Shown: positions 2,952 to 43,300, numbered from the stretch's first letter. The stretch is 64,000 nucleotides of DNA from an uncultured Hyphomicrobiales bacterium (GCA_964472015.1 CAYYIP010000003.1:37957-101956), one strand, 5' to 3'. The notes: generated by a model not told the origin, from the sequence alone. Program-made: numbers and translations.

Positions 2952-4016
2952 TTATTTTATTGGATGTTCTATTATTCCACCACCTATTAATTCATTATTA
3001 TCATATAAAACCACTGACTGCCCACAAGTTACTGCTTTACGTGGTTCTGTAAATTTAATTATTAATTTATTGTCTGCTATTTTACAATGTGCAGGTTTTC
3101 CATAATCTTTATATCTTATTTTAACTACATATTCTTTTTCTTCAAATGTATCTAAATTATCTTTAAATAAATTAATTGAATTTGCTATAAGTCCTGTACT
3201 ATATAATTTTTTTTCTATATCTACTATTATTTGTTTTGTGGTAGCATTTATTTCTTTAACATATAAAGGTTCTGAATACGAAAGTCCAATACCTCGCCTT
3301 TGTCCAATTGTATATTTGTAATATCCAGTGTGTTTTCCTATTTTTTTATTGTTAAATATAAAATCACCCGAAGTAATGTTTTTTATTTGCTCTGTTTTTG
3401 TTTTTATATTTTCTAAAAAATTACAATAATCATTATTTGGAATAAAACAAATATCTTGCGAATCACTTTTTTCAAAAGATGGTAAATTATTATTTAATGC
3501 AATATCTCTAACTTCTTGTTTAGAATTTATTTCCGAAAGCGGAAATATTGTTCTACTCAAAAAATTTTGAGGTAATTTCCAAAGCATATATGATTGATCT
3601 TTATTAATATCATTACTACAAATAATCGAGTAACGATTTGTTTTTTTATAATATTTTATAGACGCATAATGGCCAGTAGCTATATGTTTTATATTTAATT
3701 TATCAGCTTCTTTTATAATATAAGCCCATTTTATCTTATGATTACATAAAACACAAGGATTAGGTGTTCTGCCATTAATATATTCATTATAAAAATTTTC
3801 TAATATTATATTTTTAAAGTCCGTAGTTGCATCTATAACAATATGTTTAATATTAAAAAAATCACAAACTTTTTTTGCATCTTCAATTGCTTGGTTTGAA
3901 TAAGTATGCATTTTTATAGTACAAGCTATTACTTCATAGTTGAGTTTTTGTAGAAGTAAAGCTGCAACTGCCGAATCAATACCGCCTGATAAAGCTAATA
4001 ATATTTTTTCCTTCAT
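2952..4016 (-). CDS. mnmA: tRNA-specific 2-thiouridylase MnmA
   Basis: PP-loop LALSGGIDSAVAA, conserved Cys pair and overall MnmA length. Abuts the methyltransferase gene at 2949/2952. Confidence 0.9.
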   Translation of the reverse strand: MKEKILLALSGGIDSAVAALLLQKLNYEVIACTIKMHTYSNQAIEDAKKVCDFFNIKHIVIDATTDFKNIILENFYNEYINGRTPNPCVLCNHKIKWAYIIKEADKLNIKHIATGHYASIKYYKKTNRYSIICSNDINKDQSYMLWKLPQNFLSRTIFPLSEINSKQEVRDIALNNNLPSFEKSDSQDICFIPNNDYCNFLENIKTKTEQIKNITSGDFIFNNKKIGKHTGYYKYTIGQRRGIGLSYSEPLYVKEINATTKQIIVDIEKKLYSTGLIANSINLFKDNLDTFEEKEYVVKIRYKDYGKPAHCKIADNKLIIKFTEPRKAVTCGQSVVLYDNNELIGGGIIEHPIK

Positions 4017-4128
4017 TTTTTTATTAATCTAAACTAAACCAAACTAATATTACATAATATTATATGTTTATATTTATGTATTATTTATAAAATAACAAAA
4101 ATAAACATAATTATATTATTTATTATCA

Positions 4129-5823
4129 TTATTTTGTTATTATTTCTTTTTGTTTTAATAGATTTTTTAGTTTTTTTTCAACAAAAACTTCTTTTTTGTT
4201 AAAAGGGTTTTCTTTTGTATAATACATTAGTGTGGAATAAGTTGATGGCGTAGGAGTAAATATCTGTACTTGTTCTGGTAATATATTAATTTTTTTTGAA
4301 AAGAATTTTTTCATTTTTTTCATATCTTCCAAAGTACATCCAGGATGTCCTGCCATTAAATAGTAAGTAAGAAATTGTTTTTTATTATTTTCTTTTGAAA
4401 TTTTTTTAAATTTTTCATAAAATGTTTGTAAGTCACTTAATGGTTTTGCCATTAATTCAAGTACTTGTTTTTCTATATGTTCAGGTGCAATTTTCATTTG
4501 TCCACTAATGCAATTTGAAACAATATAATTTAAATAATTATTTCCATTTATTTTATCTTTCATTATTAAGTCATATCTAATACCAGACGTAACAAATATT
4601 TTATGAATATTTGGTATTTTTAATATATTTTTTAATAGTTTTAAATGTGCTTTATGATTTATTTCTCTATTTTTACAAAGTTCAGGTGTTAGACATCTTT
4701 TATTTTTACAGCTTCCATATTTTTCTTGTTGATTGCAATGCATTTTATACATATTTGCACTTGCTCCACCAACATCATAAATAATACCTTTGAAATTTTT
4801 ATCTTTTGCAAATTTATTTGCTTCTTTTAATATAGATGATTCTGATCTTGAACGAATTGTTTTGCCAAAATGTACTGCTATTGCACAAAAATTGCATTCT
4901 CCAAAACAACCTCTATGAGATGTTATTGAAAATTTTGTTGTATCTAAAGCTTTTATTTTACCTTCTTTATTATATATAGGATGAGCTTTATTCTCATATT
5001 CATAATTATAAACTTTATCTAATTCTTCAGTGCTTAAATAATAATTAGGCGGATTTTGAACTAAAACTCTATTATTTACAGTTTGAATGAGTCTTTTTGA
5101 ATTTAATGGATCATTATTGTTATAAAAAGTATTAAACAATTCAATAAACTTATTTTTGTTAATTGTAACTTCTTCATGGGAGGGTAATAAAATAGAGTTT
5201 TCTTTTAATGTTTCAATTTCTTTTTGACTTATAGTATAACATATACCACGTTGTGTTTCTATAGATTGATTATTTTTTATTTTTTCTGCTAGTTCTATAA
5301 TTGTTTTTTCACCTTCACCATATACCAATATATCAGCTTTAGAATCAAGTAAGATAGAACGTCTTAAAGAATTTTCCCAATAATCATAATGAGTAATGCG
5401 TCTTAAACTTGCTTCTATTCCACCTATAATTATAGGAACTTTTTTATCATAATATTGTTTTATAAGGTTAACATATCTTATAATAGCTCTATCCGGACGT
5501 TTATTATTAATACTTCCAGCTGTTAGAGCATCATTTTTCCTCTTTTTCTTTAATGCGGTATAGTTTGCTACCATCGAATCCATAGAACCACTGCTAATTC
5601 CCCAAAATAATTTTGGATTTCCAAATTTCATTATATCTATATCAGAATTTATAATAGGCTGTGGTATTATAGCAACTTTATAGCCTTTTTCTAATAAACA
5701 TTTTCCTATAATAGCAATTCCATTAAAACTATTATCTATATAAGCGTCACCACTTACTAATATGATATCAAGGTCGGTCCAATTTAATTGTTTTAATTCT
5801 TCTTTGGTTGCAGGGATAAACAC
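4129..5823 (-). CDS. YgiQ family radical SAM protein (UPF0313)
   Basis: CFGECNFCAI radical-SAM CxxxCxxC motif. The N-terminal B12-binding-like region and length are typical of the YgiQ family. Confidence 0.8.
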   Translation of the reverse strand: MFIPATKEELKQLNWTDLDIILVSGDAYIDNSFNGIAIIGKCLLEKGYKVAIIPQPIINSDIDIMKFGNPKLFWGISSGSMDSMVANYTALKKKRKNDALTAGSINNKRPDRAIIRYVNLIKQYYDKKVPIIIGGIEASLRRITHYDYWENSLRRSILLDSKADILVYGEGEKTIIELAEKIKNNQSIETQRGICYTISQKEIETLKENSILLPSHEEVTINKNKFIELFNTFYNNNDPLNSKRLIQTVNNRVLVQNPPNYYLSTEELDKVYNYEYENKAHPIYNKEGKIKALDTTKFSITSHRGCFGECNFCAIAVHFGKTIRSRSESSILKEANKFAKDKNFKGIIYDVGGASANMYKMHCNQQEKYGSCKNKRCLTPELCKNREINHKAHLKLLKNILKIPNIHKIFVTSGIRYDLIMKDKINGNNYLNYIVSNCISGQMKIAPEHIEKQVLELMAKPLSDLQTFYEKFKKISKENNKKQFLTYYLMAGHPGCTLEDMKKMKKFFSKKINILPEQVQIFTPTPSTYSTLMYYTKENPFNKKEVFVEKKLKNLLKQKEIITK

Positions 5824-17085: not shown

Positions 17086-18378
17086 ATGGGAAAAAAGAAT
17101 AAATTAAATAAAAAAATATATAATAGCATTTTTTTTATAACAATATTTTTGTTTTTATATATTAATTTATATTCTCAAAAATTACTTATTCAAATGGATA
17201 TTTCACAAACAAACCATTTAAAAGCATATGGTATTGTTTTTTGGTCTTTAGAGAAAGGAGATATTTGGGATTGGTTATTAAACTATCGTGGCGGATCTTT
17301 TATGACAGATTATCAACAACATATAGTTAATGAATGTAGAATTAGAGGTATAGATTTTCAAACTATAACAGATGATGAAGCTTATAAAATATATTCAATG
17401 ATACAGTCGGAAGGAGTAAATATGGATGTTGTTAAATTAGAGAAAGCACCAAAAATAGCAGTCTATGTGCAACCTGGTAATGCACCATGGGATGATGCAG
17501 TAAGAATGGTTTTAGAATATGCGGAAGTTAAATATGATGCTATTTGGGATGAAGAAGTATTAAACGATAAACTTTCTAATTATGATTGGTTACATTTACA
17601 TCATGAAGATTTTACTGGACAATATGGTAAATTTTGGGCTAAACATAGACATGAAAATTGGTATATTCAACAAGTTACACTAAATGAAAATACTGCACAA
17701 AAGTTGGGATATAAAAAAGTGTCTGAGATGAAAAAAGCTACTGTTAGAAAAATAAGAGAATTTGTAGCTAATGGTGGTTTTTTATTTGCTATGTGTACTG
17801 CAACAGATACATATGATATTGCCTTATCTGCTGAAGATGTAGATATTTGTGCAGAAATTTATGATGGCGATCAAGCAGATCCAAAATCTAATGACAAATT
17901 AGATTATTCTAAAACAATGGCGTTTGAAAATTATACTGTTTATACAAATCCTATGTATCATCCTTTTTCTGATATAGATGTTGGTGTTCAAAGTGAAATT
18001 GAAAATCAAGATGTTGATTATTTTACTCTTTTTGAATTTTCTGCAAAATATGATCCTATACCTACTATGTTAACACAATGTCATGTTAATGTTATTAAAG
18101 GATTTTTAGGACAAACAACAGCTTTTTATAAAAATAAAATAAAAAAATATGTTAATATATTAGCAGAAAAAGAAGGTACAGATGAAGTAAAATATATTCA
18201 AGGACATATAGGAAGAGGTTTTTTTTGTTGGTATGGTGGACATGATCCTGAAGATTATCAACATTTTCTTGGAGATCCACCTACTAATTTAGAATTATAT
18301 AAGACTTCTCCGGGATATAGACTTATATTAAATAATATATTATTTCCAGCTGCAAAGAAAAAAACACAAAAAACATAG
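17086..18378 (+). CDS. hypothetical protein with signal peptide/anchor and possible class-I glutamine-amidotransferase-like core
   Basis: Hydrophobic N-terminus (IFFITIFLFLYINLYSQ). Motifs KIAVYVQPGNAPWDD and GGFLFAMCTATD are loosely GATase1/DJ-1-like. No confident family assignment. Confidence 0.4.
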   Translation: MGKKNKLNKKIYNSIFFITIFLFLYINLYSQKLLIQMDISQTNHLKAYGIVFWSLEKGDIWDWLLNYRGGSFMTDYQQHIVNECRIRGIDFQTITDDEAYKIYSMIQSEGVNMDVVKLEKAPKIAVYVQPGNAPWDDAVRMVLEYAEVKYDAIWDEEVLNDKLSNYDWLHLHHEDFTGQYGKFWAKHRHENWYIQQVTLNENTAQKLGYKKVSEMKKATVRKIREFVANGGFLFAMCTATDTYDIALSAEDVDICAEIYDGDQADPKSNDKLDYSKTMAFENYTVYTNPMYHPFSDIDVGVQSEIENQDVDYFTLFEFSAKYDPIPTMLTQCHVNVIKGFLGQTTAFYKNKIKKYVNILAEKEGTDEVKYIQGHIGRGFFCWYGGHDPEDYQHFLGDPPTNLELYKTSPGYRLILNNILFPAAKKKTQKT

Positions 18379-18480
18379 ATTATAGATTATATTTATACAA
18401 TTGTTATTATAAGATTAAGTTACAATAATATAATTTAATTATATATTTTTACTTAAAAATATATAAAAATTTATATATAT

Positions 18481-19344
18481 TTGTATTTTGTAATTTTACT
18501 CATAAAATATATGAAAAAAATATTTATAGGGCTAATTATTTTTCTGATATACAGTATTAACAGAGATATATGTTTTGCTAATGTAATTATACAGATACCA
18601 GATACAGTAATTACAAAAGATATCATAACACTTCCTATTAATGGAAGTATAGAGGTAAATAAAAAAACAGGTGATATATTAGAATGTTGTTTTGAATTAA
18701 ATGGAGCTACAACTGATATTATAAGTATCGTAGGTACAGACGAATGTGCTATTATAGATAAAAATATTTCTTTTAGTTTTGATAAAGAAAATAATAAATT
18801 AATATTTTCTACTACTGAATTTAAATCAAATTTTAATGGTATTCTGTTTTACTTAACATTAAATATTTATCCACGTATTGATTTTTATTATAAACATGCT
18901 TCTTTTGTTGAAATTATTCCAACCGAAGTAAGTATTAATAAAAATAAAATTAATTTAACTGCTAAAAAAGGTACAATAAATATTAAAAATATTAATGTTA
19001 AACAAGATTATAGTGAACGTTTTTCTTATGCATTTCCTAATCCATTCTCTTATGAAACTGAATTATATTTCAGTATAGAATCAGAATCTACTTTTAAGTT
19101 GGAAATATATAATTATTATGGCGAACTTATTCAAGTTATTCCTTTAGAAAATAATATATTTAATTTTACTATAATGGATGCTAGTAGAAAAATTATTAAT
19201 TTGACAGAAAATTATAAATTTCAACGTGGATTATATAAAATAATACTTCAGCCTCAAGTAATACTTGCTCAAACAGGTGCTTATAGATTAGTTTTTGATA
19301 TTAATAATAATAGGCATATAGTTAATGTTTCTTTTATTAAATAA
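18481..19344 (+). CDS. secreted protein with probable T9SS type-A C-terminal sorting domain
   Basis: Signal peptide. C-terminal stretch AFPNPFSYETELYFSIESESTFKLEIYNYYGELIQVI resembles the T9SS CTD (PNPF...L.IYD..G..V). Confidence 0.5.
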   Translation: MYFVILLIKYMKKIFIGLIIFLIYSINRDICFANVIIQIPDTVITKDIITLPINGSIEVNKKTGDILECCFELNGATTDIISIVGTDECAIIDKNISFSFDKENNKLIFSTTEFKSNFNGILFYLTLNIYPRIDFYYKHASFVEIIPTEVSINKNKINLTAKKGTINIKNINVKQDYSERFSYAFPNPFSYETELYFSIESESTFKLEIYNYYGELIQVIPLENNIFNFTIMDASRKIINLTENYKFQRGLYKIILQPQVILAQTGAYRLVFDINNNRHIVNVSFIK

Positions 19345-19408
19345 TATTTATATTTGAGAAATATAATAAAGTATAAAAATATATAATTAATATAAAATTA
19401 TAGTTAAA

Positions 19409-21874
19409 ATGAAAAAAAGATTTTTAATAAATAATAAATTTTTAATAAATAATAATAGAATAAAATTTATAAGTATATTTTTTTTATTTATAATAGGTTT
19501 TAATTATAACTTATTAAATGCACAAAATACTAACAATGATTCTGTCGTTGATAATGTAAGTAAAATTCAGCAACAAAAGTTATATCAAATTAATAAAAAT
19601 GTAGAAGGACGTGAGTTTTGGTTATGTTTTATGATTAATTATTTTGATGATTTCATAAAAAAAAGGAATAGAGATATTGATTTACAATTATTTATTACAG
19701 GAGAATATGATGCAACAGTTACAATTGAATTTTCTAAGATTGGATATAAAGAAATTATTGAATTAAAAGGAGGACAGGTTGTATCTGTTAAGATAGATAA
19801 ACTTGCGCAAGTTACTGAATTTGGAACGGTAGAATCAGAACAAGCTGTACATATAACTTCTACACAACCTATAACTGTTTATGGATTGAATAGACGTTCT
19901 CAAACAACTGATACATTTTTAGGATATCCGGTTGAAGTTCTTGGTACTGAATATATGGTAATGAGTTATTTAAGCTTTGATTCAAAATTACTTTCTATAT
20001 TTTCTATTGTTGCCACCGAAGATAATACGGAGGTTGAAATAATTCCTACAGTTAGAACATCTAATAATAAACAAGCAGGGGAACCTTTTATTGTTACAAT
20101 GAATAAAGGAGATGTATATCAATGTGCTGGTATGTATCGTCCAAGAGATCCAAATTATTCTGACTTAACGGGTACAACTATAAAATCAAATAAAAAAATA
20201 GCAGTATTTAGTGGACATCAATGTGCTAATGTTCCTACTATTCAAGTTATGGCTTGTAATCATTTAGTTGAACAGATGCCACCTGTACAAACTTGGGGAA
20301 AACATTTTTATCTTGGGAAATTAAAAATGAGGTCAAAGTATACGTATAGAGTTCTTGCTTCAAATGATAGTACTAGAGTTTTTTGTGATACTGCTTTAAT
20401 TGCTGTTTTAATGAAAGGACAGTATGTTCAAAGAGATGCAACCGAACATATTCAAATTACTGCTGATAAGCCTGTGCTTGTTGCTCAGTATTCACCGGGG
20501 TTAGCTATAGGTGACGGATTAGGTGATCCTATGATGATACTTGTTAGTCCAACACAACAATTTTTAAATAAATATAGATTTGCTACTCCTGTAAATGGTA
20601 ATTGGTATCATTTAATTAATGTTATGGTTCCTACTAAAGCAATTAGTACTTTCAGAGTTAATGGGCTTCCTATAGAAAAAAAGTTATTTGAAAAACTTGG
20701 TGTAAGTAGATTTTCTACTGCTAGTATTAAATTATCATATGGCTCACATACGGTAGAATGCTCGCAACCATTTGGATTATATTCTTATGGTTTTGGATTT
20801 GGTGACGGAACTGATGCTTATGATGCTTATGGAACTATGGGAGGACAATCTTTTATTGAATATGAACCTGCTATTGATAGTATTCCGCCTGTTGCTGAAT
20901 TATTTAGACGGAACAAATATGGTGCGATTTTATTAAGTGATGATGGTTCTGATGATACGGGTATTTTAGATATAACTGTTGTTGAAGTAAAAAATATGAA
21001 AGTTAATATTCCTAACTTTGTACCTGCCGCACCTTCGGTTTTTGTTGATATCGTTCCAGAAAATACTAATAGTGCTGGTAAATTAATTCTTAGTGCTAAA
21101 GATGTTGCAAGAAATGAAGTATTTTATACTATTTGTTATGTATTTGATAATACTGCTTTAGAATATGATTATATAATACAAAAAGGTAGTAATATAGAAT
21201 GTGAAACAACTGAAACTATCCAGTTAGGATTATTTTATAATTTATCTTATAATTATTATTCTTCAAAATTTAATAAAACTGATAATATAAATAGTATAAA
21301 TAAATTTGATGGTATTTTTAATAAAAGTGGTATATTAGGCGTTTCAGTTTCAAGACATTTATTTGGAAAATTTAATGGAATCGCTAAATTAATTTTACAA
21401 ACAAATAATGCTGAATTTAATAGTATTGATTCTATAAAAAGATTTGTTATTGATAGTATTTCTAATAATTATGTACCTTATTTTGAAGGTTATTCTATTA
21501 ATATAAAAAATTTGAATTTGAATTTAGATTTGGGACTTGATTATAGAATATCTGAATATTTTTACTTATCAACTGGTGTTGTATGTAGATATGCTTTATC
21601 AAAGAAAGCAGAGAATAGTAAAGTAATATTTTTCCCGCCCGGTTATGTTTATGATAATAATAAATATAAGGAAATTATTTCAAATGAATTAAATTCTATT
21701 TCTAATTTTAATTTTGGAATTTATATTGGACTAGGATTTATTTGTAATATAGGATATAGAATAAGTCTTTTTACAGATATAAATTATTATTACTTACCAT
21801 TTTCTCAATTAAATGATGCAGATTTATTTTTAAATCAAATAAACTTAAAAATAGGATTAAAATATAGCTTGTAA
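19409..21874 (+). CDS. IgGFc-binding-protein N-terminal-domain protein with C-terminal predicted outer-membrane beta-barrel
   Basis: Signal peptide. GREFWLCFMINYFDD is the characteristic start of the IgGFc_binding N-domain. The last ~250 aa is N/Y/S-rich with alternating hydrophobics and ends ...LKIGLKYSL, i.e. OMP beta-barrel-like. Confidence 0.5.
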   Translation: MKKRFLINNKFLINNNRIKFISIFFLFIIGFNYNLLNAQNTNNDSVVDNVSKIQQQKLYQINKNVEGREFWLCFMINYFDDFIKKRNRDIDLQLFITGEYDATVTIEFSKIGYKEIIELKGGQVVSVKIDKLAQVTEFGTVESEQAVHITSTQPITVYGLNRRSQTTDTFLGYPVEVLGTEYMVMSYLSFDSKLLSIFSIVATEDNTEVEIIPTVRTSNNKQAGEPFIVTMNKGDVYQCAGMYRPRDPNYSDLTGTTIKSNKKIAVFSGHQCANVPTIQVMACNHLVEQMPPVQTWGKHFYLGKLKMRSKYTYRVLASNDSTRVFCDTALIAVLMKGQYVQRDATEHIQITADKPVLVAQYSPGLAIGDGLGDPMMILVSPTQQFLNKYRFATPVNGNWYHLINVMVPTKAISTFRVNGLPIEKKLFEKLGVSRFSTASIKLSYGSHTVECSQPFGLYSYGFGFGDGTDAYDAYGTMGGQSFIEYEPAIDSIPPVAELFRRNKYGAILLSDDGSDDTGILDITVVEVKNMKVNIPNFVPAAPSVFVDIVPENTNSAGKLILSAKDVARNEVFYTICYVFDNTALEYDYIIQKGSNIECETTETIQLGLFYNLSYNYYSSKFNKTDNINSINKFDGIFNKSGILGVSVSRHLFGKFNGIAKLILQTNNAEFNSIDSIKRFVIDSISNNYVPYFEGYSINIKNLNLNLDLGLDYRISEYFYLSTGVVCRYALSKKAENSKVIFFPPGYVYDNNKYKEIISNELNSISNFNFGIYIGLGFICNIGYRISLFTDINYYYLPFSQLNDADLFLNQINLKIGLKYSL

Positions 21875-21931
21875 TTTATTTATTTTATTGATGCTTGATA
21901 TTATAACATATATTAAATATGTAATTAAGAG

Positions 21932-21965
21932 AAAGAACCTAATTTAGGTTCTTTTTCTTTTTTTT
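21932..21965 (+). terminator. rho-independent terminator (agaacct-loop-aggttct followed by a T-run)
   Basis: Stem 21934-21940 / 21946-21952 followed by ttttcttttttttt. The stem sequence is related to the terminators after both duplicated genes. Confidence 0.6.
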
Positions 21966-22470
21966 ATCATAAATTTAATAAATATAATTTTTATATGTTT
22001 TAATTTAAGATAAAATATATGAAAATTATAATATAAGTCTTGTTAATATAGTACTATATTTTGTTATATGTATAGTTATGTTTTTATGATTTCTAATTAT
22101 TATAAAAATTGTATTTATTAGATAAAAATAATTTATAATATAAAACTAACTATTTATATAATAAAGATATTATATAAAAATACTTAGATATAGTTTTTCT
22201 ATTTTTTTAGATAAACTAATCTAGTTTTAAAGATATTAATTCTATAATTAAAAAAAATATTATATAAAAATATGAATATTATATTTTGATAATATAATAT
22301 TTTTTATTAATTTTGTAACAAAATTATATGTAGTATATATTATAGTATAGTTTTATAGATTTATATTGTAGTATTAAAATTAAATTGTTATGAATTTGAA
22401 ATTTATAAGATTAATTTTAATTTTTAATTTTTGAAATAAATATTTAAATAATAAAAAAGAGGATGTCTTT

Positions 22471-25400
22471 ATGAACAAGAAAATTTTATTCCCTAAATTT
22501 TTATTGATGCCATTTATTTTTATGTTATTGTTTCTGTTAAGTACAGAATATGCTTCATCAGAAATGTTTGAAACAGGAATAGGTGCATCTACTTCATCAA
22601 CAAATTATTTCCCCTATTATTTTTATAATTATGCAAGAGCACGAACTCTCTATCCAGCAAATGAGTTATGGGGTGAAGAGGGTGAAATTTATTCTTTTAG
22701 TTTTTACATAACTTCTGCTTCTGTAAGTTCTGGTATGAATAATTTTGCAATTTATATGCGTAATTGTGGTGATAGTACAGCTTATAATAATATTAGTGCA
22801 GTAATAGATACAAGTGCTAGTAGTGGTTTTGTTCGTGTATATAGTGCTAGTCTTTTTGCTCCTGTTGCATCAGATGTAAATGAATGGTATACTTTTGACT
22901 TTGAAACCCCATTCTTTTATGAAGGTAATAGTTTAGAAATCGTTATTGTGCATAATGATGGTTCATATTCAAATAATACAAATTTTTCTGTAAGAACTTA
23001 CTATACAGGTTCACATAGAAGATTAAATTATGCTTATAGTGATTCGCCTGGTAGTCCAACTAATTATTCTTCTGCGATGAATTATGCTGTAAGCGCTAGA
23101 TTTGAATATGAAGCAAGTAAGATGAAATATTTACGTACCGAAATAAATACACCTGAAATACAACAAATATCAGATGTTCAGTATAATCTTTTACAATTTA
23201 ATGTTGTAACAGAAAAATTTAAGGATCCACTTACAGTTAATAATTTAATTATAGATTTATTAGGTACAGATTTAGATGTTGATATTGAGAAAATAGAAGT
23301 TTATTGTACTTATGGTTCTGATTTATTTGCTCTTGGTGCTCCTGTAGGTACACTTACTAATGTTGATTTATTTTCAAAGAATAGAATAATTTTTGATACC
23401 CCTGTTACTTTAGGTGAGGGTTATAATTATTTTTGGATAACTTGTACTGTCAATCCAGCCAATACTTTAGGGGATAGGGTCTTAGATGCTAATTTACTTC
23501 AATTAAGTATAAATGGTGTTTATAAAGATACTGAGGAAGAATATACTAATACCGAAGGTGAAGCCCATATTAATTATACTCCAATTGAACTGTTAGATGT
23601 TCAAACATCTTATACTTTATGTTCTACTCATCCACCTAAACCTATAACAGTTTTGTCTAGAGGTACAGTTATTGGTTATATATGGGAGAGATGGAATGAT
23701 GCGCTTTCGGCATATGAAGTTATTCCTAATGCCACAACTAATACTTATAGTGTTATTACCGAAGAAGTTATGTCAGGTTATGATTTATATAGATTTACTG
23801 CCGTTTCTCCTAAGGGCGGGAATGAAACAATAGTCAATCAATCAGTAGAAATAAGTTTTGATTATGATATGGATTTAGAATATGCAAAGATTTATGATAA
23901 TGGTATTTTAGTAGATGAAGAAGACTTATATATTTTATGTGTTGGTGATGAAGTTATATTGACTAGTGAAATAGTTGGTGATTATAAAGAACTTATTTGG
24001 CAATATAGTACAGATAATATTAATTGGTTTAATATTTCCTTAATAGATATGCCAACAGCTAATACTCCGACTTTAAAATTTATAGCAGATGAAAGATATA
24101 AAAATTCTAAGATAAGATTATCAGTTTTAGGTACCGACGCTTGTGGTACAATAGTTTATAGTAATTCTATGAGTGTCAATGTATTTATGGATCCTTTATT
24201 TGTAACACAACCTTCTTCAGCCTCCTTATGTGCAGGTGAAGATTTTTATACTGCTTTGAATTTTAGTGGCGAAGAGCCAATATATCAGATGTGGTATAAA
24301 GATGGTGTTCCATTAGGAGATGAAAACGATACAATTTATAATAAACAGGAATTAGAATTTACTAATGTAGATGTTAATCTTGCTGGTTCTTATTATTATT
24401 TTATTCGAGTAGAAACTTGTTATGGTATAGTAGAAATGGTATCCGATACAATAATTATATCCGTTTTCCCAAATACCGAAGTACATAATATTACTAAAGG
24501 TAATGTACGTTCTAACGAAGGTGAAACAGCTATTTTAGAGGTTGAAGCAAGTTATGTACCTACCGAATTATATCCTCGTGGACAATTCCAATGGTATCGT
24601 TATGATGTTTTAACCAATACTTCTATTCCATTAGAAAATTCATATAAAATTAAAGGTGCCCAATCTACAGTTTTAGTTATAAATTATATTACATTAGCCG
24701 ATTATACTTTTAATGGTTCTTATTATTATTGTAGGGTTAGCGGGAAATGTGGTTCATCAGTAGATAGTGATCCTATTATGTTAATTCCATCTGAACAGAT
24801 AAAAATTATTAAGCAACCTGAAAGTTTAACCGTATGTTCTACAGTTGGGCTTGTAACCTTAAGTACTCAAGTATTTTCGAGTGAAGATAATTCAAAATTA
24901 CGTTATCAATGGTATTATGATAATACAGCTTTGATAGATGGTGGTGATTATACAGGTGTTGATACTAAAGAATTAAATGTAACCATAAATAGTTCAACAA
25001 AATATCCTATGCCATTTTATTGTAAGATTTGGCTTGAAGGTAATGATCCTAACTTAGATTTTATTAAAACTTCAGAAGTTATTATAGATGTTTTAGAAGA
25101 TTATCAACCTGAATTATCTTCATCTACTTTAAATGGAGACCCTGTTTTACTTGATGGTTTAACTACATCTTTAACAGTTGGTTCAGAATTAAATATTCAT
25201 ATAGAGACTTTAAATCCGAATACTGATATCATTCATTGGGCGAAGCGTAATTCAGTTAGTGGCGAATATGACTTACTTGGTTTAAGTGGGAATGATTTTG
25301 TTATTCCATCTTTAAGTTTAACGGATGCGGGAGATTATGCTATTATCATCAAAAATGAATGTGAAACAGCTACTCTTTTAATTGAATTTGTTTTAGAAGT

Positions 25401-25710
25401 TGAAGAATTTATAGATGAAACTACTAACACAGGTATAAGTATATTATCTATAGATAATATCGAGTTACTTCCTAATCCAGTTACTTCTATTTTACAAGTT
25501 AAGTATTTATCATCTTTATCTTCTGAAACCGAACTAACAATTTTAGATTTATGTGGTTCAGTATTATATAAAACATTACTACATAGTACAATAGGTTTAA
25601 ATGAATTTACAATAGATTTCAATAAGTTACATATTTCTAATGGAAGTTATTTTGTTCGTATAAATTCACGGGATAACTTTATAATAAAATCATTTGTATT
25701 ATCAAAATAA
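22471..25710 (+). CDS. large secreted Ig-like-repeat adhesin-type protein with T9SS type-A C-terminal sorting domain (copy 1)
   Basis: Signal peptide. Recurrent Ig-fold D-x-G-x-Y-x-C motifs (LAGSYYYFIRVETCYG, FNGSYYYCRVSGKCG, DAGDYAIIIKNECETA). C-terminal LLPNPVTSILQVKYLSS...LDLCGSVLYK is a T9SS CTD. Confidence 0.7.
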   Translation: MNKKILFPKFLLMPFIFMLLFLLSTEYASSEMFETGIGASTSSTNYFPYYFYNYARARTLYPANELWGEEGEIYSFSFYITSASVSSGMNNFAIYMRNCGDSTAYNNISAVIDTSASSGFVRVYSASLFAPVASDVNEWYTFDFETPFFYEGNSLEIVIVHNDGSYSNNTNFSVRTYYTGSHRRLNYAYSDSPGSPTNYSSAMNYAVSARFEYEASKMKYLRTEINTPEIQQISDVQYNLLQFNVVTEKFKDPLTVNNLIIDLLGTDLDVDIEKIEVYCTYGSDLFALGAPVGTLTNVDLFSKNRIIFDTPVTLGEGYNYFWITCTVNPANTLGDRVLDANLLQLSINGVYKDTEEEYTNTEGEAHINYTPIELLDVQTSYTLCSTHPPKPITVLSRGTVIGYIWERWNDALSAYEVIPNATTNTYSVITEEVMSGYDLYRFTAVSPKGGNETIVNQSVEISFDYDMDLEYAKIYDNGILVDEEDLYILCVGDEVILTSEIVGDYKELIWQYSTDNINWFNISLIDMPTANTPTLKFIADERYKNSKIRLSVLGTDACGTIVYSNSMSVNVFMDPLFVTQPSSASLCAGEDFYTALNFSGEEPIYQMWYKDGVPLGDENDTIYNKQELEFTNVDVNLAGSYYYFIRVETCYGIVEMVSDTIIISVFPNTEVHNITKGNVRSNEGETAILEVEASYVPTELYPRGQFQWYRYDVLTNTSIPLENSYKIKGAQSTVLVINYITLADYTFNGSYYYCRVSGKCGSSVDSDPIMLIPSEQIKIIKQPESLTVCSTVGLVTLSTQVFSSEDNSKLRYQWYYDNTALIDGGDYTGVDTKELNVTINSSTKYPMPFYCKIWLEGNDPNLDFIKTSEVIIDVLEDYQPELSSSTLNGDPVLLDGLTTSLTVGSELNIHIETLNPNTDIIHWAKRNSVSGEYDLLGLSGNDFVIPSLSLTDAGDYAIIIKNECETATLLIEFVLEVEEFIDETTNTGISILSIDNIELLPNPVTSILQVKYLSSLSSETELTILDLCGSVLYKTLLHSTIGLNEFTIDFNKLHISNGSYFVRINSRDNFIIKSFVLSK

Positions 25711-25778
25711 TGTTATTATTCTTATTATTATTATCTATTTATTAATATTTTAATATTAATGATTTTATTTTTAGAATA

Positions 25779-25813
25779 AAAAAAGAACCTTATTTAATAA
25801 GGTTCTTTTTTTT
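25779..25813 (+). terminator. rho-independent terminator (aagaacc-ttatttaataa-ggttctt followed by T9)
   Basis: Perfect 7-bp GC-containing stem, 11-nt loop, and a run of T directly downstream. Confidence 0.7.
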
Positions 25814-26203
25814 TACGACTCCATAAAATTTTATAACAATTATATTTTTTTTATTTTTTTTATGTTTTATTCGTTTTTTTCTACAAACATGAAAAAAAAA
25901 TTTGGTTATATTATTGTAGAACTCCTAAAAAACAGTTGTTGATTTTATATAAAAATATTATTTTAAATATGAAAATATATATGTAATATACTATGTATTC
26001 CAAATGTATATTACAATATTTAAATCAAAAATTATTATAAAAAATTATTTGTTTTTGTTAAAAATTTATTATTGTAATTATTATAATAATTTTGATAAAA
26101 TTAATATAGATACATTTTGCTAAGAAATGTGTCTATATAATTAAAGATAGATAATAAATAATAAATAAGAAATATTAATATTTTTTTTGATTTTAGAGGT
26201 GTT

Positions 26204-29200
26204 TTTTTATGAACAAGAAAATTTTATTCCCTAAATTTTTATTGATGCCATTTATTTTTATGTTATTGTTTCTGTTAAGTACAGAATATGCTTCATCAGA
26301 AATGTTTGAAACAGGAATAGGTGCATCTACTTCATCAACAAATTATTTCCCCTATTATTTTTATAATTATGCAAGAGCACGAACTCTCTATCCAGCAAAT
26401 GAGTTATGGGGTGAAGAGGGTGAAATTTATTCTTTTAGTTTTTACATAACTTCTGCTTCTGTAAGTTCTGGTATGAATAATTTTGCAATTTATATGCGTA
26501 ATTGTGGTGATAGTACAGCTTATAATAATATTAGTGCAGTAATAGATACAAGTGCTAGTAGTGGTTTTGTTCGTGTATATAGTGCTAGTCTTTTTGCTCC
26601 TGTTGCATCAGATGTAAATGAATGGTATACTTTTGACTTTGAAACCCCATTCTTTTATGAAGGTAATAGTTTAGAAATCGTTATTGTGCATAATGATGGT
26701 TCATATTCAAATAATACAAATTTTTCTGTAAGAACTTACTATACAGGTTCACATAGAAGATTAAATTATGCTTATAGTGATTCGCCTGGTAGTCCAACTA
26801 ATTATTCTTCTGCGATGAATTATGCTGTAAGCGCTAGATTTGAATATGAAGCAAGTAAGATGAAATATTTACGTACCGAAATAAATACACCTGAAATACA
26901 ACAAATATCAGATGTTCAGTATAATCTTTTACAATTTAATGTTGTAACAGAAAAATTTAAGGATCCACTTACAGTTAATAATTTAATTATAGATTTATTA
27001 GGTACAGATTTAGATGTTGATATTGAGAAAATAGAAGTTTATTGTACTTATGGTTCTGATTTATTTGCTCTTGGTGCTCCTGTAGGTACACTTACTAATG
27101 TTGATTTATTTTCAAAGAATAGAATAATTTTTGATACCCCTGTTACTTTAGGTGAGGGTTATAATTATTTTTGGATAACTTGTACTGTCAATCCAGCCAA
27201 TACTTTAGGGGATAGGGTCTTAGATGCTAATTTACTTCAATTAAGTATAAATGGTGTTTATAAAGATACTGAGGAAGAATATACTAATACCGAAGGTGAA
27301 GCCCATATTAATTATACTCCAATTGAACTGTTAGATGTTCAAACATCTTATACTTTATGTTCTACTCATCCACCTAAACCTATAACAGTTTTGTCTAGAG
27401 GTACAGTTATTGGTTATATATGGGAGAGATGGAATGATGCGCTTTCGGCATATGAAGTTATTCCTAATGCCACAACTAATACTTATAGTGTTATTACCGA
27501 AGAAGTTATGTCAGGTTATGATTTATATAGATTTACTGCCGTTTCTCCTAAGGGCGGGAATGAAACAATAGTCAATCAATCAGTAGAAATAAGTTTTGAT
27601 TATGATATGGATTTAGAATATGCAAAGATTTATGATAATGGTATTTTAGTAGATGAAGAAGACTTATATATTTTATGTGTTGGTGATGAAGTTATATTGA
27701 CTAGTGAAATAGTTGGTGATTATAAAGAACTTATTTGGCAATATAGTACAGATAATATTAATTGGTTTAATATTTCCTTAATAGATATGCCAACAGCTAA
27801 TACTCCGACTTTAAAATTTATAGCAGATGAAAGATATAAAAATTCTAAGATAAGATTATCAGTTTTAGGTACCGACGCTTGTGGTACAATAGTTTATAGT
27901 AATTCTATGAGTGTCAATGTATTTATGGATCCTTTATTTGTAACACAACCTTCTTCAGCCTCCTTATGTGCAGGTGAAGATTTTTATACTGCTTTGAATT
28001 TTAGTGGCGAAGAGCCAATATATCAGATGTGGTATAAAGATGGTGTTCCATTAGGAGATGAAAACGATACAATTTATAATAAACAGGAATTAGAATTTAC
28101 TAATGTAGATGTTAATCTTGCTGGTTCTTATTATTATTTTATTCGAGTAGAAACTTGTTATGGTATAGTAGAAATGGTATCCGATACAATAATTATATCC
28201 GTTTTCCCAAATACCGAAGTACATAATATTACTAAAGGTAATGTACGTTCTAACGAAGGTGAAACAGCTATTTTAGAGGTTGAAGCAAGTTATGTACCTA
28301 CCGAATTATATCCTCGTGGACAATTCCAATGGTATCGTTATGATGTTTTAACCAATACTTCTATTCCATTAGAAAATTCATATAAAATTAAAGGTGCCCA
28401 ATCTACAGTTTTAGTTATAAATTATATTACATTAGCCGATTATACTTTTAATGGTTCTTATTATTATTGTAGGGTTAGCGGGAAATGTGGTTCATCAGTA
28501 GATAGTGATCCTATTATGTTAATTCCATCTGAACAGATAAAAATTATTAAGCAACCTGAAAGTTTAACCGTATGTTCTACAGTTGGGCTTGTAACCTTAA
28601 GTACTCAAGTATTTTCGAGTGAAGATAATTCAAAATTACGTTATCAATGGTATTATGATAATACAGCTTTGATAGATGGTGGTGATTATACAGGTGTTGA
28701 TACTAAAGAATTAAATGTAACCATAAATAGTTCAACAAAATATCCTATGCCATTTTATTGTAAGATTTGGCTTGAAGGTAATGATCCTAACTTAGATTTT
28801 ATTAAAACTTCAGAAGTTATTATAGATGTTTTAGAAGATTATCAACCTGAATTATCTTCATCTACTTTAAATGGAGACCCTGTTTTACTTGATGGTTTAA
28901 CTACATCTTTAACAGTTGGTTCAGAATTAAATATTCATATAGAGACTTTAAATCCGAATACTGATATCATTCATTGGGCGAAGCGTAATTCAGTTAGTGG
29001 CGAATATGACTTACTTGGTTTAAGTGGGAATGATTTTGTTATTCCATCTTTAAGTTTAACGGATGCGGGAGATTATGCTATTATCATCAAAAATGAATGT
29101 GAAACAGCTACTCTTTTAATTGAATTTGTTTTAGAAGTTGAAGAATTTATAGATGAAACTACTAACACAGGTATAAGTATATTATCTATAGATAATATCG

Positions 29201-29546
29201 AGTTACTTCCTAATCCAGTTACTTCTATTTTACAAGTTAAGTATTTATCATCTTTATCTTCTGAAACCGAACTAACAATTTTAGATTTATGTGGTTCAGT
29301 ATTATATAAAACATTACTACATAGTACAATAGGTTTAAATGAATTTACAATAGATTTCAATAAGTTACATATTTCTAATGGAAGTTATTTTGTTCGTATA
29401 AATTCACGAGATAACTTTATAATAAAATCATTTGTATTATCAAAATAATGTTAATATTCTTATTATTATCTATTTATTAATATTTTAATATTAATAATTT
29501 TATTTTTAGAATAAAAAAAGAACCTTATTTAATAAGGTTCTTTTTT
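26204..29546. repeat. tandem duplication copy 2
   Basis: See copy 1. The encoded 1079-aa protein is identical in the ORF track. Confidence 0.9.
26209..29448 (+). CDS. large secreted Ig-like-repeat adhesin-type protein with T9SS type-A C-terminal sorting domain (copy 2, protein identical to copy 1)
   Basis: Identical 1079-aa translation. A different 5' flank means its own promoter and RBS context (agaggtgttttttt ATG versus aagaggatgtcttt ATG). Confidence 0.7.
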   Translation: MNKKILFPKFLLMPFIFMLLFLLSTEYASSEMFETGIGASTSSTNYFPYYFYNYARARTLYPANELWGEEGEIYSFSFYITSASVSSGMNNFAIYMRNCGDSTAYNNISAVIDTSASSGFVRVYSASLFAPVASDVNEWYTFDFETPFFYEGNSLEIVIVHNDGSYSNNTNFSVRTYYTGSHRRLNYAYSDSPGSPTNYSSAMNYAVSARFEYEASKMKYLRTEINTPEIQQISDVQYNLLQFNVVTEKFKDPLTVNNLIIDLLGTDLDVDIEKIEVYCTYGSDLFALGAPVGTLTNVDLFSKNRIIFDTPVTLGEGYNYFWITCTVNPANTLGDRVLDANLLQLSINGVYKDTEEEYTNTEGEAHINYTPIELLDVQTSYTLCSTHPPKPITVLSRGTVIGYIWERWNDALSAYEVIPNATTNTYSVITEEVMSGYDLYRFTAVSPKGGNETIVNQSVEISFDYDMDLEYAKIYDNGILVDEEDLYILCVGDEVILTSEIVGDYKELIWQYSTDNINWFNISLIDMPTANTPTLKFIADERYKNSKIRLSVLGTDACGTIVYSNSMSVNVFMDPLFVTQPSSASLCAGEDFYTALNFSGEEPIYQMWYKDGVPLGDENDTIYNKQELEFTNVDVNLAGSYYYFIRVETCYGIVEMVSDTIIISVFPNTEVHNITKGNVRSNEGETAILEVEASYVPTELYPRGQFQWYRYDVLTNTSIPLENSYKIKGAQSTVLVINYITLADYTFNGSYYYCRVSGKCGSSVDSDPIMLIPSEQIKIIKQPESLTVCSTVGLVTLSTQVFSSEDNSKLRYQWYYDNTALIDGGDYTGVDTKELNVTINSSTKYPMPFYCKIWLEGNDPNLDFIKTSEVIIDVLEDYQPELSSSTLNGDPVLLDGLTTSLTVGSELNIHIETLNPNTDIIHWAKRNSVSGEYDLLGLSGNDFVIPSLSLTDAGDYAIIIKNECETATLLIEFVLEVEEFIDETTNTGISILSIDNIELLPNPVTSILQVKYLSSLSSETELTILDLCGSVLYKTLLHSTIGLNEFTIDFNKLHISNGSYFVRINSRDNFIIKSFVLSK

Positions 29547-29547
29547 T
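29512..29547 (+). terminator. rho-independent terminator (duplicate of 25779..25813)
   Basis: Same stem-loop aagaacc/ggttctt, followed by T7. Confidence 0.7.
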
Positions 29548-29588
29548 ATAATCTGAAAAACTGAAAATATTGTTTATTATATTATTAT

Positions 29589-40329: not shown

Positions 40330-43300
40330 ATGAATAATGAAGTTAGTAAAAAAGATATTAAAGATAAAGTAGGAAGTAAACAAAAACAAAGTTTATTAAG
40401 GAATATTTTTAATTTTATGGTTAAAAGTATTTTAATTATATGTATGTTTTTAATATTGTTTATTGTTATTATTTCCTATTCTTCCAGTGTAAGACATTAT
40501 TTTTTAAATAAAATAACTGATGTTGTAAATGAATTTTTAATTGCAGATGTTGAAATAAGCGATATTCATATAATTAAATTTAATGGTATAGCTTTGCAGC
40601 ATGTTAGAGTTATAACTGCAGGTGATACATTAGCTTATATCCCTGAGATAGAAATCAATATAAATTTTGAAAAAATATTTTTAGGTATTATAGATGTAAA
40701 TTTTATACAATTACAAGCCCCCCGTATTAAGTTACTTAGATCCTTTCAAGATAGTGTCTGGAATTATAATAAAATCATAAATCCAAGTAAGAATATTGAG
40801 GAAACTACTTCGCCATCTAAATTGAAAATTAATATAGGTGAGTTAATTTTAAATAATGCCTATTTTGTAATGTGGGATTCTACAGCTGAATATAAAAGTG
40901 CAGGACATATTCATTATGACAAACTTGCTTTAAAAGAACTAAATTTATATGCTAAAAATATCAGTGTTAATCTTGAAAATATGAATATAGAAGCTAATAT
41001 TGTTAATTTAGCTGCATATGAAATTCCATCTAATTTTAGAATTCATAAATTTTCCGGCAAAGCAAAAATTGATAATAATTCTATTGAATTAAAGAGTACG
41101 AAAATTGTTTTAGATAATGCTAATTTTGATTTTGATGCAAGAATGTCTAATTTTTCTATTTTTGGTAATGGAAATAGAAATATAGCAAAAGTAGATATGT
41201 TCTTAGAATTAACTGGAAATGATATTGATTTAATTTTTATTGATAATTTTGTTATTATTCCTGTAAGATTAGGTTTTGTAAAAAATATAGAGATTTTAGC
41301 TAGCGGTACTTTGATGGATTTAAATGTACAAAAACTTATCTTAAATACGAATGATTCACATATTTATTTAACAGAATGTAGATTAACTAACTTATTAAAT
41401 ACAGATAGTTTTTCGTATAAAGGGATATTAGATTGCACTAATATATCAAGAATGGATATTTCTGATATGTTAAAAAATATTGATTTAAGTGCAGTTCCTA
41501 ATTTTAAGAAAGTATTAATTAATAATACAAAATTTTATGGGACTAAAGATTCTGTATATGCAGATTTAGATTTTAAAACATTCATAGGAAATGTTAAGGG
41601 TAATGTTGGTATAGGATTTGGAAGACAGCCGTTTTCTTATGATATAAATTTAGATTTAAGAAAAATTAATTTATCTGATATATTGAATAATAAAAAATTT
41701 AGTTCAAATATTAATGCAAATTTTTATTTAAAAGGGTATGGAATAAATTCTGGTAATATATTTGCGAATGCAAAAATAGAATTGAAACGTTCTGATTTTT
41801 TAGGTTTTAATTTTCTTGAATCAAATATATTGATTGATGCAATAGGTGATAGTTTAATAATTCATGATTTTTCACTTCAAAAATTAAATATTCCTAATAC
41901 TAATATCCAAATAGATAACTCAAAATTTGGTGGGACAGAAGTTATTTATAGAAATTTAATTAATAATCAAGAATTAAATTATGATAGTAAGATATCTATT
42001 AATGGAGGAATTAATTTTAAATCTTTTGATATGTTGCATCTAATTTTGAATATAGATTTAGAACATATAGAATTATTAGATATAATACATAAAGTTACAG
42101 ATGTTGAATATAAAAATTTACCTACTGTTATTGATAGTAAAATAAAATTAGATATAACAAGTTTTGATATTGATAATATGATTGGTAATTTTGATATAGA
42201 TTTTCAACGTCTTGAATTTAGAAATAAAAATATGTTACCACTTACAATTAGTGGAGCGATTGACATGCAAGATACTTTAAATCATAAAATAGAATTAAAT
42301 ATAGATAATATTTTTAATAATATTCTTTATTTATCTGTTAATGGTAAGTATTATTTTACAGAATTATTAAATGATATTTCTACTCATTTTAATGGCAATT
42401 ATAATTTTATTTCAAATAAAATTAATAACTTTTTTGAGCAAATAAAAACAGATACTAATACAATAATTGATAATAAAAATATTAAATATATAACATTAAA
42501 TAAAAATAATGCAAATGTAATTTTTCAAGTTAGAGATATAGATTGGCTTAATATATTTATTCCTGAGTTTGAATCTAACTCATCAATAATAGATGTAAAA
42601 TTTAACTTTAATTCAAATTATTTGTATAGTAATTTGAATGTAGATTCTATAAAAATAAAAAACTTAAATATAAAATATAAGAATTTTAATGCAGTTATAG
42701 ATAATATAATTATTAATGGAGAAAATAATATAAATATTTTAGATTCTGTAGCAAATTTAGAAAATTTATATTGTGTTATAAAAGATGGAAGAGGTATAAA
42801 TATTTCGGGGTCGGCACTTGATTCTATTGAGTTAAATGCTAATATTAATAAACAACAGCTAAATATTAATTTTATTGGAACATATAATAATATAATAAAA
42901 TCAAAATTAGTTGGTGAAATTAATTTTAAAGATACTACAAATAGTGAAGTAATTTTTGATACATTAGAAATTAATTTTAATAAACAAAAATGGCATAATA
43001 CAGATAAAATAATTGCTTTTTTATTACCTAATGGTATTGATATATATAATTTTAATATTGAACGCGATAATAAAGAAAAATTATTTCTAAAAGGAATTTT
43101 GAATGGTGATACGATTGATAATGTTTCATTAACATTAAATAATTTTGAATTTAATGACTTACAGTCTATTCTTAATTTAAATAATAAAAATAATTTTGAT
43201 ATATTTGCAAAACTAGATACATTAAAAGTTTTAGTTAATGGTACATTAAATTCTCCTTTAATAGACTTGTCTTTATTTGTAGATGATATAAGATATATTA

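Follow-up and report, generated by a model that had tools for sequence, protein, structure and literature searches.

This study focused on a pair of adjacent genes, g287 and g821, in a 64,000-nt stretch of DNA (the window) recorded for an uncultured Hyphomicrobiales bacterium (GCA_964472015.1, CAYYIP010000003.1:37957-101956). They are the second and third of five consecutive genes for secreted proteins at positions 17086-29547 and are named, like g430 ahead of them, after products of 287, 821 and 430 aa; the last two genes code for copies of a 1079-aa protein and are called the adhesins. In g821 an IgGFc_binding-type region is followed by a C-terminal outer-membrane beta-barrel, and an original prediction speculatively saw in this barrel a PorP/SprF-like partner for the anchoring or secretion of the two adhesins, which are type IX secretion system (T9SS) cargo. 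The comparative analyses lead to a different functional unit, formed by g287 and g821 and often preceded by g430, and not by the barrel and the adhesins. The idea of a cargo-specific partner thus failed for the adhesins but survived in an altered form, with g287, a protein with a T9SS tail, encoded upstream of g821 at nearly all loci. It is tentatively proposed that g821 could be a dedicated outer-membrane partner of the upstream g287, cargo-specific in the manner of PorQ–PorZ and SprF–SprB without being homologous to them; the likelihood of this reading is put somewhat short of an even chance. The comparative genomics is solid, while the mechanism is unproven and the function of the pair has been deduced from sequence alone.

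The synteny sample comprised 80 loci from species-representative genomes with g821 homologues (215 confirmed), plus five from contig look-ups. All 80 belong to one broad clade of Kapabacteria/Ignavibacteria-type genomes, which are metagenome-assembled genomes (MAGs). With a hidden Markov model iterated from g287, a g287-family gene (~270 aa) was found as the immediately upstream open reading frame (ORF) in 72/78 loci. Two more (L025 and L081) also carry such a gene, on the + strand, and in another two (L018 and L064) it is one ORF away, giving a total of 76/78; the one genome that lacks it is L002/L008, where a 327-aa signal-peptide protein is encoded upstream. The intergenic gap between the two genes is 20 nt or less in 64/71 pairs, and 20 pairs have a 4-nt overlap, an arrangement typical of translational coupling. 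Beyond the pair the genes vary, among them topA (topoisomerase I) in L007, g430, and in L002 a gene for an NAGPA-family protein, so frozen synteny alone cannot account for the adjacency. Across loci the g821 proteins share only ~40–45% identity, and maf and cysS also recur near them. As a neighbour of g821, g287 has a frequency of ~97%, versus 45% for g430 (30/67 loci) and 55% for a ccmB-like gene, and the adjacency of the pair is much stronger than the background synteny. The last of these, the commonest downstream gene, specifies a ~223-aa permease that is weakly CcmB-like (TIGR01190, far below the cut-off); it starts within 40 nt 3' of the g821 homologue, often overlapping it, in 38/69 eligible loci (e.g., L004 12412-13077 and L016 11451-12125), and has no homologue anywhere in the window.

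The g287 ORF specifies 287 aa if read from a TTG at 18481, and 277 aa from the ATG at 18511, which is the publicly annotated form (P0293) and likely the true start. Judged by its sequence and by the profile of its family, g287 would be a minimal T9SS-type protein with a signal peptide, a single cohesin-like domain (about residues 25–160) and a T9SS type A sorting domain (about residues 168–277). Along the full length of the domain, the family profile matched the cohesin crystal structures 6kg8 (E 1.5e-5) and 6kgc (E 2.7e-5), positions 25–159 aligning with 9–151, along with five weaker cohesin chains and the T9SS C-terminal domain (CTD) structure 8glj_D. Among the 62 family members scanned, three individually matched Pfam Cohesin (PF00963), 53 matched TIGR04183 (best 1.2e-8) and 41 matched PF18962, and the family consensus carries the canonical type A pattern NYPNPF...IY..G..V...SG.Y.L...K. 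CHU_C was found, weakly, in 3/62 and none of the members is better described as type B. The T9SS CTD that had been claimed for the 287-aa protein therefore holds at the level of the family (the 53/62 with TIGR04183), whereas the copy in the window is sub-threshold, although it retains the motifs AFPNPF...LEIYNYYGELI...GAYRLVF...K. The CTD status of g287 rests on profiles, since a pairwise BLAST comparison with the adhesin CTD was not significant. A word-indexed protein search with the profile of the cohesin domain returned only four proteins, too small a set for a reciprocal test of the linkage to g821, and no dockerin turned up in the Pfam scans of g430, g821 and the adhesin, no search aimed at dockerins having been made. 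In L009, a 59%-identical relative, the gene ahead of the g821 homologue (3937-5208) specifies, instead of the cohesin protein, a leucine-rich-repeat protein whose T9SS tail is clear (LYPNPSN...RFMKQ).

That g821 joins an IgGFc_binding-type region to an outer-membrane barrel at its C-terminus was borne out: the fusion is conserved full-length in hundreds of proteins, and the AlphaFold2 (AF2) model and Foldseek agree on it, the C-terminus ending, as first noted, in LKIGLKYSL. The model, built on the family alignment, has a mean pLDDT of 81.9 (80–94 over residues 600–821), and both it and the hydrophobicity pattern give long amphipathic strands over residues 604–820. Hydrophobicity alternates in every predicted barrel strand, a pattern conserved across the family alignment. 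In a Foldseek comparison with the PDB, the barrels of OmpA, Ail, OmpX, NspA, OprG and OmpW were matched with probability 1.00 and TM scores (target) of 0.5–0.57. Of the 46 aligned family members, 21 have barrel matches in Pfam (PF13568 in 17, PF13505 in three and PF01389, OmpA_membrane, in one). On its own, the g821 of the window is marginal, both against OMP_b-brl (E 0.039, 14.5 bits versus a cut-off of 28.7) and, with residues 560–821, against CarO (E 0.039), and it is the family-level evidence that settles the C-terminus as a barrel.

In the model, this barrel belongs to the small OmpA/Ail/OmpX class of 8–10 strands, and a parity count makes it probably 10-stranded, with short turns at residues 653–654, 714–717 and 781–784. 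A long hairpin (strands 655–681 and 688–713) must, if the model is right, stand out from the membrane in the manner of OmpX and Ail. The small 8-stranded barrels of Pfam clan MBB (the OmpA N-domain, OmpX, Ail, NspA and OprG/OmpW) are the best structural matches for residues ~600–821, and in OmpX and Ail strands likewise project beyond the membrane; g821 differs from them in placing its barrel C-terminal to a large multidomain region, in its probable 10 strands, and in a sequence similarity that is marginal in the window copy. With an even number of strands, residue 603 would share its side of the membrane with the C-terminus, and in all standard outer-membrane proteins the C-terminus is periplasmic. 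Homology to PorP/SprF, which had been expected of this region, did not emerge. TIGR03519 was absent from full-length g821 (NCBIfam, E≤1) and from residues 560–821 (NCBIfam, E≤10), PF11751 was absent from the C-terminus (Pfam, E≤10), and neither TIGR03519 (NCBIfam, E≤0.1) nor PF11751 (Pfam) was found in any of the 46 family members. An assignment to the PorP/SprF family was rejected on the lack of a profile match and on a fold of the small OmpA/OmpX class.

The N-terminal part of g821 is no less conserved in its architecture. The IgGFc_binding domain (PF17517) was matched over the whole profile (positions 1–297 of 297) by residues 168–461, with an E value of 1.6e-75 and 254.5 bits against a cut-off of 25.6, and by 46/46 family members. 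The motif quoted for this domain in the original prediction, GREFWLCFMINYF, is present in g821, but at residues 67–79, which belong to a small beta domain preceding the PF17517 match. Invariant positions of the IgGFc_binding domain in the family alignment are H270, C272, C283, N284, E288, Q289, D369, D373, H401 and H447. Seen as motifs, these are GHQC...ACNHLVEQ.PP (residues 270–289), with D369, G372-D373-P374, H401 and H447, kept without change across 46 proteins of ~42% identity and specified by about 20216-20750 of the window. Such a constellation suggests a disulfide together with a predicted metal- or ligand-binding or catalytic site. The IgGFc_binding domain is separated from the barrel by an Ig-like sandwich (residues 495–592, from the AF2 strands), in which the acidic motif D511/D512/D515/D516/G518 is invariant; the possibility that region 477–602 is a hidden T9SS CTD was considered and dropped, there being no Pfam match at E≤10. 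Searched by sequence against the PDB, the family profile of g821 gave no match.

There are 859 g821 homologues, and the best 120 are all ~780–860 aa long with query coverages of 92–100%. Among 1.84 billion representatives, the module of Ig-like domain plus barrel turned up in 54 clusters, most of which are family members of ~780–840 aa matched at the C-terminus, or fragments, with hardly an exception; it is essentially confined to the g821 family and is therefore not a general-purpose anchor. Database names in the family are purely domain-derived ('IgGFc-binding protein', 'outer membrane beta-barrel protein'), and the literature on PF17517, on T9SS in Kapabacteria and on cohesins with T9SS yielded no description of it. 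In one Kapaibacterium genome (L064, 8531-9961) an extra gene, for a 476-aa IgGFc_binding protein that lacks the barrel, is inserted after the g287-family gene and ahead of the gene for the full-length g821 homologue.

Several known systems resemble the proposed pair. PorA, PorU and PorZ are CTD-bearing proteins that are kept at the surface on outer-membrane barrels (PMC7712824), and in the PorQ–PorZ, PorV–PorU and PorV–PorA combinations of the Porphyromonas gingivalis T9SS (PMC7712824) a T9SS-CTD protein is held by a barrel, as is proposed here for g287. PorA offers the closer parallel in build, being small (246 aa) and composed of an N-terminal binding-type domain and a CTD, and g287 is likewise a two-domain protein. 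In sequence, however, the pair is not homologous to PorA, PorQ or PorV. The barrel of g821 is of the OmpA/OmpX class, not of the PorP/PorQ or PorV (FadL) type, and is fused to a 550-residue IgGFc_binding/Ig region; g287 and g821 are encoded as an overlapping bicistron, and their interaction is proposed on the strength of the present analysis. As with SprB–SprF and the PorP/SprF-like proteins of Flavobacteriia (TIGR03519), a cargo gene of the pair is directly followed by a barrel gene of the same orientation, and the concept, that of a cargo-specific outer-membrane partner, is shared. The pair differs in the absence of a PorP/SprF profile match, in the large N-terminal extension of g821 and in the type of sorting domain, the cargo of the SprF type being type B (CHU_C/TIGR04131) and both g287 and the adhesins type A. 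Bacterial FCGBP_N domains (PF17517) accompany T9SS-associated CHU_C and SprB domains in Bacteroidota (PMC4948705), and the proteins of Flavobacteria, Cytophaga and Sphingobacteria in which they occur with CHU_C, PKD or SprB domains (Lang et al. 2016, PMC4948705) are, like g821, secreted proteins of T9SS-bearing FCB-group bacteria with PF17517 placed N-terminally. Those proteins end in a type B CHU_C domain, whereas g821 ends in an integral outer-membrane barrel and has its T9SS tail on a separate partner. The concept of a cargo-specific outer-membrane partner encoded beside a T9SS protein is already known; the novelty lies in the kind of barrel, in its being joined to FCGBP_N, in a cohesin partner of type A and in the clade.

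As a mechanism, it can be envisaged that g821, exported by way of its Sec signal peptide and anchored in the outer membrane by its C-terminal barrel, would retain at the surface a g287 that is exported by the T9SS. Contact might be made through the sorting domain of g287, its cohesin domain or both, possibly with the 655–713 hairpin or the barrel loops of g821. Under the standard topology of barrels (an even number of strands and a periplasmic C-terminus) the 550-residue N-terminal region of g821 would be periplasmic, and could couple the surface complex to components of the envelope, possibly including the secreted g430 hydrolase. If so, g287 and g821, a near-universal coupled pair in a whole uncultured clade, would offer a simple, testable two-protein case of cargo-specific anchoring, a subject of some interest as the retention of T9SS substrates at the surface is poorly known beyond a few model species of Bacteroidota. 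They would also give a bacterial context to the enigmatic FCGBP_N domain of animal mucus proteins.

A number of points weigh against this proposal. If the N-terminal region is periplasmic and g287 is secreted, then only the barrel loops could touch g287, and the large and highly conserved IgGFc_binding domain would be left with no role in the mechanism; FCGBP_N domains are, moreover, otherwise extracellular, which conflicts with a periplasmic location. The known cargo-specific barrels (PorP, SprF and PorQ) are of another family and serve type B or retained CTDs. The CTD of the window g287 scores only E 0.099 and 13.4 bits against a cut-off of 27, and has no NCBIfam match. All of the loci come from a single clade, so common descent accounts for part of the adjacency. 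That these genomes have a T9SS is itself deduced from CTD-bearing proteins alone, and the contact between g287 and g821 is a prediction from sequence. The topology of the N-terminal domain is the weak point, its periplasmic placement being predicted from standard barrel rules, and two alternatives that treat it differently were kept for this reason.

The first alternative, unlikely but deserving of attention, is that g287, the N-terminal region of g821 and g430 could together form a periplasm-facing envelope module acting on a substrate such as glycan, peptidoglycan or lipoprotein, with the CTD-like domain of g287 serving as a structural beta-sandwich or docking element and not as a signal for export. 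An even strand count, which puts residue 603 on the periplasmic side with the C-terminus, agrees with this, and the invariant His, Cys, Glu and Asp residues of the IgGFc_binding domain could form the site. The properties of g430 also bear on it. This protein has no sequence match in Pfam, NCBIfam or the PDB, but its AF2 model (pLDDT 79.5, pTM 0.81) was matched by Foldseek, with probability 1.00, to STM3548, lin1909, the GATase-like (trimerisation) domain of GH42 enzymes, gamma-glutamyl hydrolase and SpuA. Residues C237, H386, D387, P388 and E389 are invariant in the family alignment. C237 sits between a strand (232–236) and a helix (238–248) in the manner of a nucleophile elbow, and the invariant H386-D-P-E389, which follows a strand, resembles the HPE motif of the class I glutamine-amidotransferase-like superfamily. 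On these structural grounds, g430 is read as a secreted hydrolase with a putative Cys237-His386-Glu389 triad, its activity being a prediction. There are more than 8000 homologues, with identities of 63–86% among the best 120, and several are named 'asparagine synthetase B' at NCBI, a name that looks wrong for a family with a glutamine-amidotransferase-like fold; this very large secreted family is flagged here for that reason. Its members, for which there is no Pfam model, also share an invariant basic C-terminal tail, FPAAKKKxQKT.

A homologue of this hydrolase-like protein is encoded just upstream of the g287–g821 pair in the 45% of loci mentioned above, which favours a common module, but at the other 55% it is not in the neighbourhood, and the g430 family extends far beyond the genomes that have g821, so that the linkage may be inherited synteny. 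It is a facultative member of the cassette, and whether it is tied functionally to the pair is uncertain, given that maf and cysS recur nearby as well. The match of 53/62 g287-family members to the T9SS type A model, with the canonical NYPNPF...K, also speaks against such a module, as does the extracellular location of FCGBP_N domains elsewhere (PMC4948705).

The second alternative, which is improbable, reverses the topology: the IgGFc_binding region would be a passenger displayed at the surface by its own barrel, in the way of an autotransporter, where it would bind the secreted cohesin protein in a two-protein adhesive complex. It has the attraction of bringing both coupled gene products into one compartment, and it fits the extracellular occurrence of FCGBP_N in animals and in T9SS cargo (PMC4948705). 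The order of N-terminal passenger and C-terminal barrel is that of type Va autotransporters, and the autotransporter EspP was among the weaker Foldseek matches, but at rank 34 and with a TM score of only 0.26. The best fold matches are barrels of 8–10 strands, whose pore could not accommodate a linker passing through it, the AF2 model has no alpha-helical linker ahead of the barrel, and none of the 46 family members has an autotransporter match in Pfam or NCBIfam. A hybrid of autotransporter-like self-anchoring and T9SS-dependent assembly can also be imagined, and is held to be similarly doubtful. The g821 family would then represent an unrecognised mode of FCGBP_N display, possibly for adhesion or gliding, in which Kapabacteria/Ignavibacteria have fused the domain covalently to a small barrel of its own and have passed the task of T9SS sorting to a cohesin-CTD partner, obligatory and coupled in translation, with which it assembles at the surface, whereas Bacteroidota export FCGBP_N as T9SS type B cargo docked on a separate PorP/SprF barrel.

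Returning to the adhesins, their description as tandem T9SS cargo was upheld, residues 1001–1076 matching PF18962 with 34.8 bits (cut-off 27) and TIGR04183 with 26.5 bits (cut-off 23). What was not upheld is their partnership with the barrel, which is now very unlikely. It is true that g821 is on the same strand as, and adjoins, two T9SS type A cargo genes, and that the arrangement recurs in the closest relative (L001, 76% identical), where an adhesin homologue is adjacent to the barrel gene. Over the ~80 loci, however, a clear downstream adhesin homologue (>40% identity) was found in only two, the other being L007, where it is 7.5 kb downstream with opposite-strand genes between; L031 has a weak, partial match of 22% identity 6.6 kb downstream. 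Most relatives have the CcmB-like permease or something else in this position. In the window itself, a strong hairpin terminator follows 53 nt past the g821 stop (a 15-bp stem at 21927-21959, then a T-run), and ~500 nt of AT-rich spacer separates it from adhesin copy 1. The lack of PorP/SprF similarity in g821 counts against the partnership too, as do the adhesin CTDs, which are of type A while SprF-type barrels serve type B. Co-transcription of g821 with the adhesins, or conserved synteny between them, was ruled out by the terminator and by the synteny of the 80 genomes. The adhesins are a separate transcription unit and not conserved neighbours, and we infer that they are independent T9SS cargo genes which in this lineage are downstream by happenstance. 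The remaining explanation, that g287 and g821 are not functionally coupled and merely keep an inherited gene order, could appeal to the common clade of the MAGs and to the recurrence of maf, cysS and the ccmB-like gene, yet it has very little to recommend it when the next-best neighbours reach 45–55% against ~97% for g287, and when the g821 proteins are only ~40–45% identical and 20 pairs have a 4-nt overlap.

The two adhesin copies show 100% identity in DNA over a stretch that starts at 22468, 3 nt ahead of the ATG, and runs to about 25700; in the second copy it is found at 26206-29438, with an offset of 3738. Each has its own terminator of the GAACCT...AGGTTC type, that of copy 1 at 25785-25805. 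This hairpin core, with its T-run, occurs exactly three times in the 64 kb (0.01 expected), at 21935-21951, 25785-25805 and 29520-29540, which is to say after g821 and after each of the adhesin copies, and the three terminators are related in sequence, perhaps a trace of the insertion or duplication of the adhesin cassette. The regions upstream of the two copies (596 and 498 nt; 21875-22467 versus 25711-26205) are unrelated, and the downstream terminator regions (25700-25815 versus 29435-29550) are ~90% identical with a 3-nt indel. Full identity over almost exactly the coding sequence points to gene conversion homogenising it, or to an artefact of assembly, more than to a tandem duplication that is simple and recent.

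Features of the locus are collected in Table 1. The five consecutive + strand ORFs were all recovered where they had been placed, and a basic and then hydrophobic N-terminus, as expected of a signal peptide, was read from the translated ORFs in 5/5 products. The term island, which had been applied to this region, is not warranted in a compositional sense: its GC content of 0.22–0.28 matches the flanks, and with 0.21–0.28 throughout the window, 17086-29547 is compositionally like its surroundings.

Table 1. Genes, domains and terminator of the g430–g287–g821–adhesin region, in window coordinates.
Feature	Position	Strand	Evidence
g430, secreted, 430 aa, class I glutamine-amidotransferase-like fold (predicted)	17086..18378	+	ORF, AF2, Foldseek, conserved residues
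g287, signal peptide, cohesin-like domain and T9SS type A CTD (predicted)	18511..19344	+	Family profile, TIGR04183, PF18962
g821, signal peptide, small beta domain, IgGFc_binding/FCGBP_N, Ig-like domain and C-terminal barrel	19409..21874	+	Pfam, alignment, AF2, Foldseek
IgGFc_binding (PF17517) domain of g821, residues 168–461	19910..20791	+	Pfam E 1.6e-75
Ig-like beta-sandwich of g821, residues 495–592	20891..21184	+	AF2 strands, invariant columns
Outer-membrane beta-barrel of g821, residues 604–821	21218..21871	+	AF2, hydrophobicity pattern, Foldseek, family Pfam matches
Intrinsic terminator closing the g430–g287–g821 unit	21927..21969	+	15-bp stem, then T-run
Adhesin copy 1, 1079 aa, Ig-type domains and T9SS type A CTD	22471..25710	+	ORF, Pfam, NCBIfam
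Adhesin copy 2, coding sequence identical to copy 1	26209..29448	+	ORF, DNA comparison

Many of the MAG records that carry the cassette (L012, L013, L015, L018-L021, L080 and others) go under the titles 'uncultured Hyphomicrobiales', 'Chloroflexota', 'Desulfobulbaceae' or 'Bradyrhizobiaceae'. The cassette is of the Kapabacteria/Ignavibacteria type, and taxonomic mislabelling is probable in these records. Elsewhere in the window, an ORF of 1560 aa at 40330-45012 has no Pfam match, and a further T9SS type A cargo gene at 48071-51175 codes for a 1034-aa protein with Rha78A-like Ig, fn3 and CTD domains.

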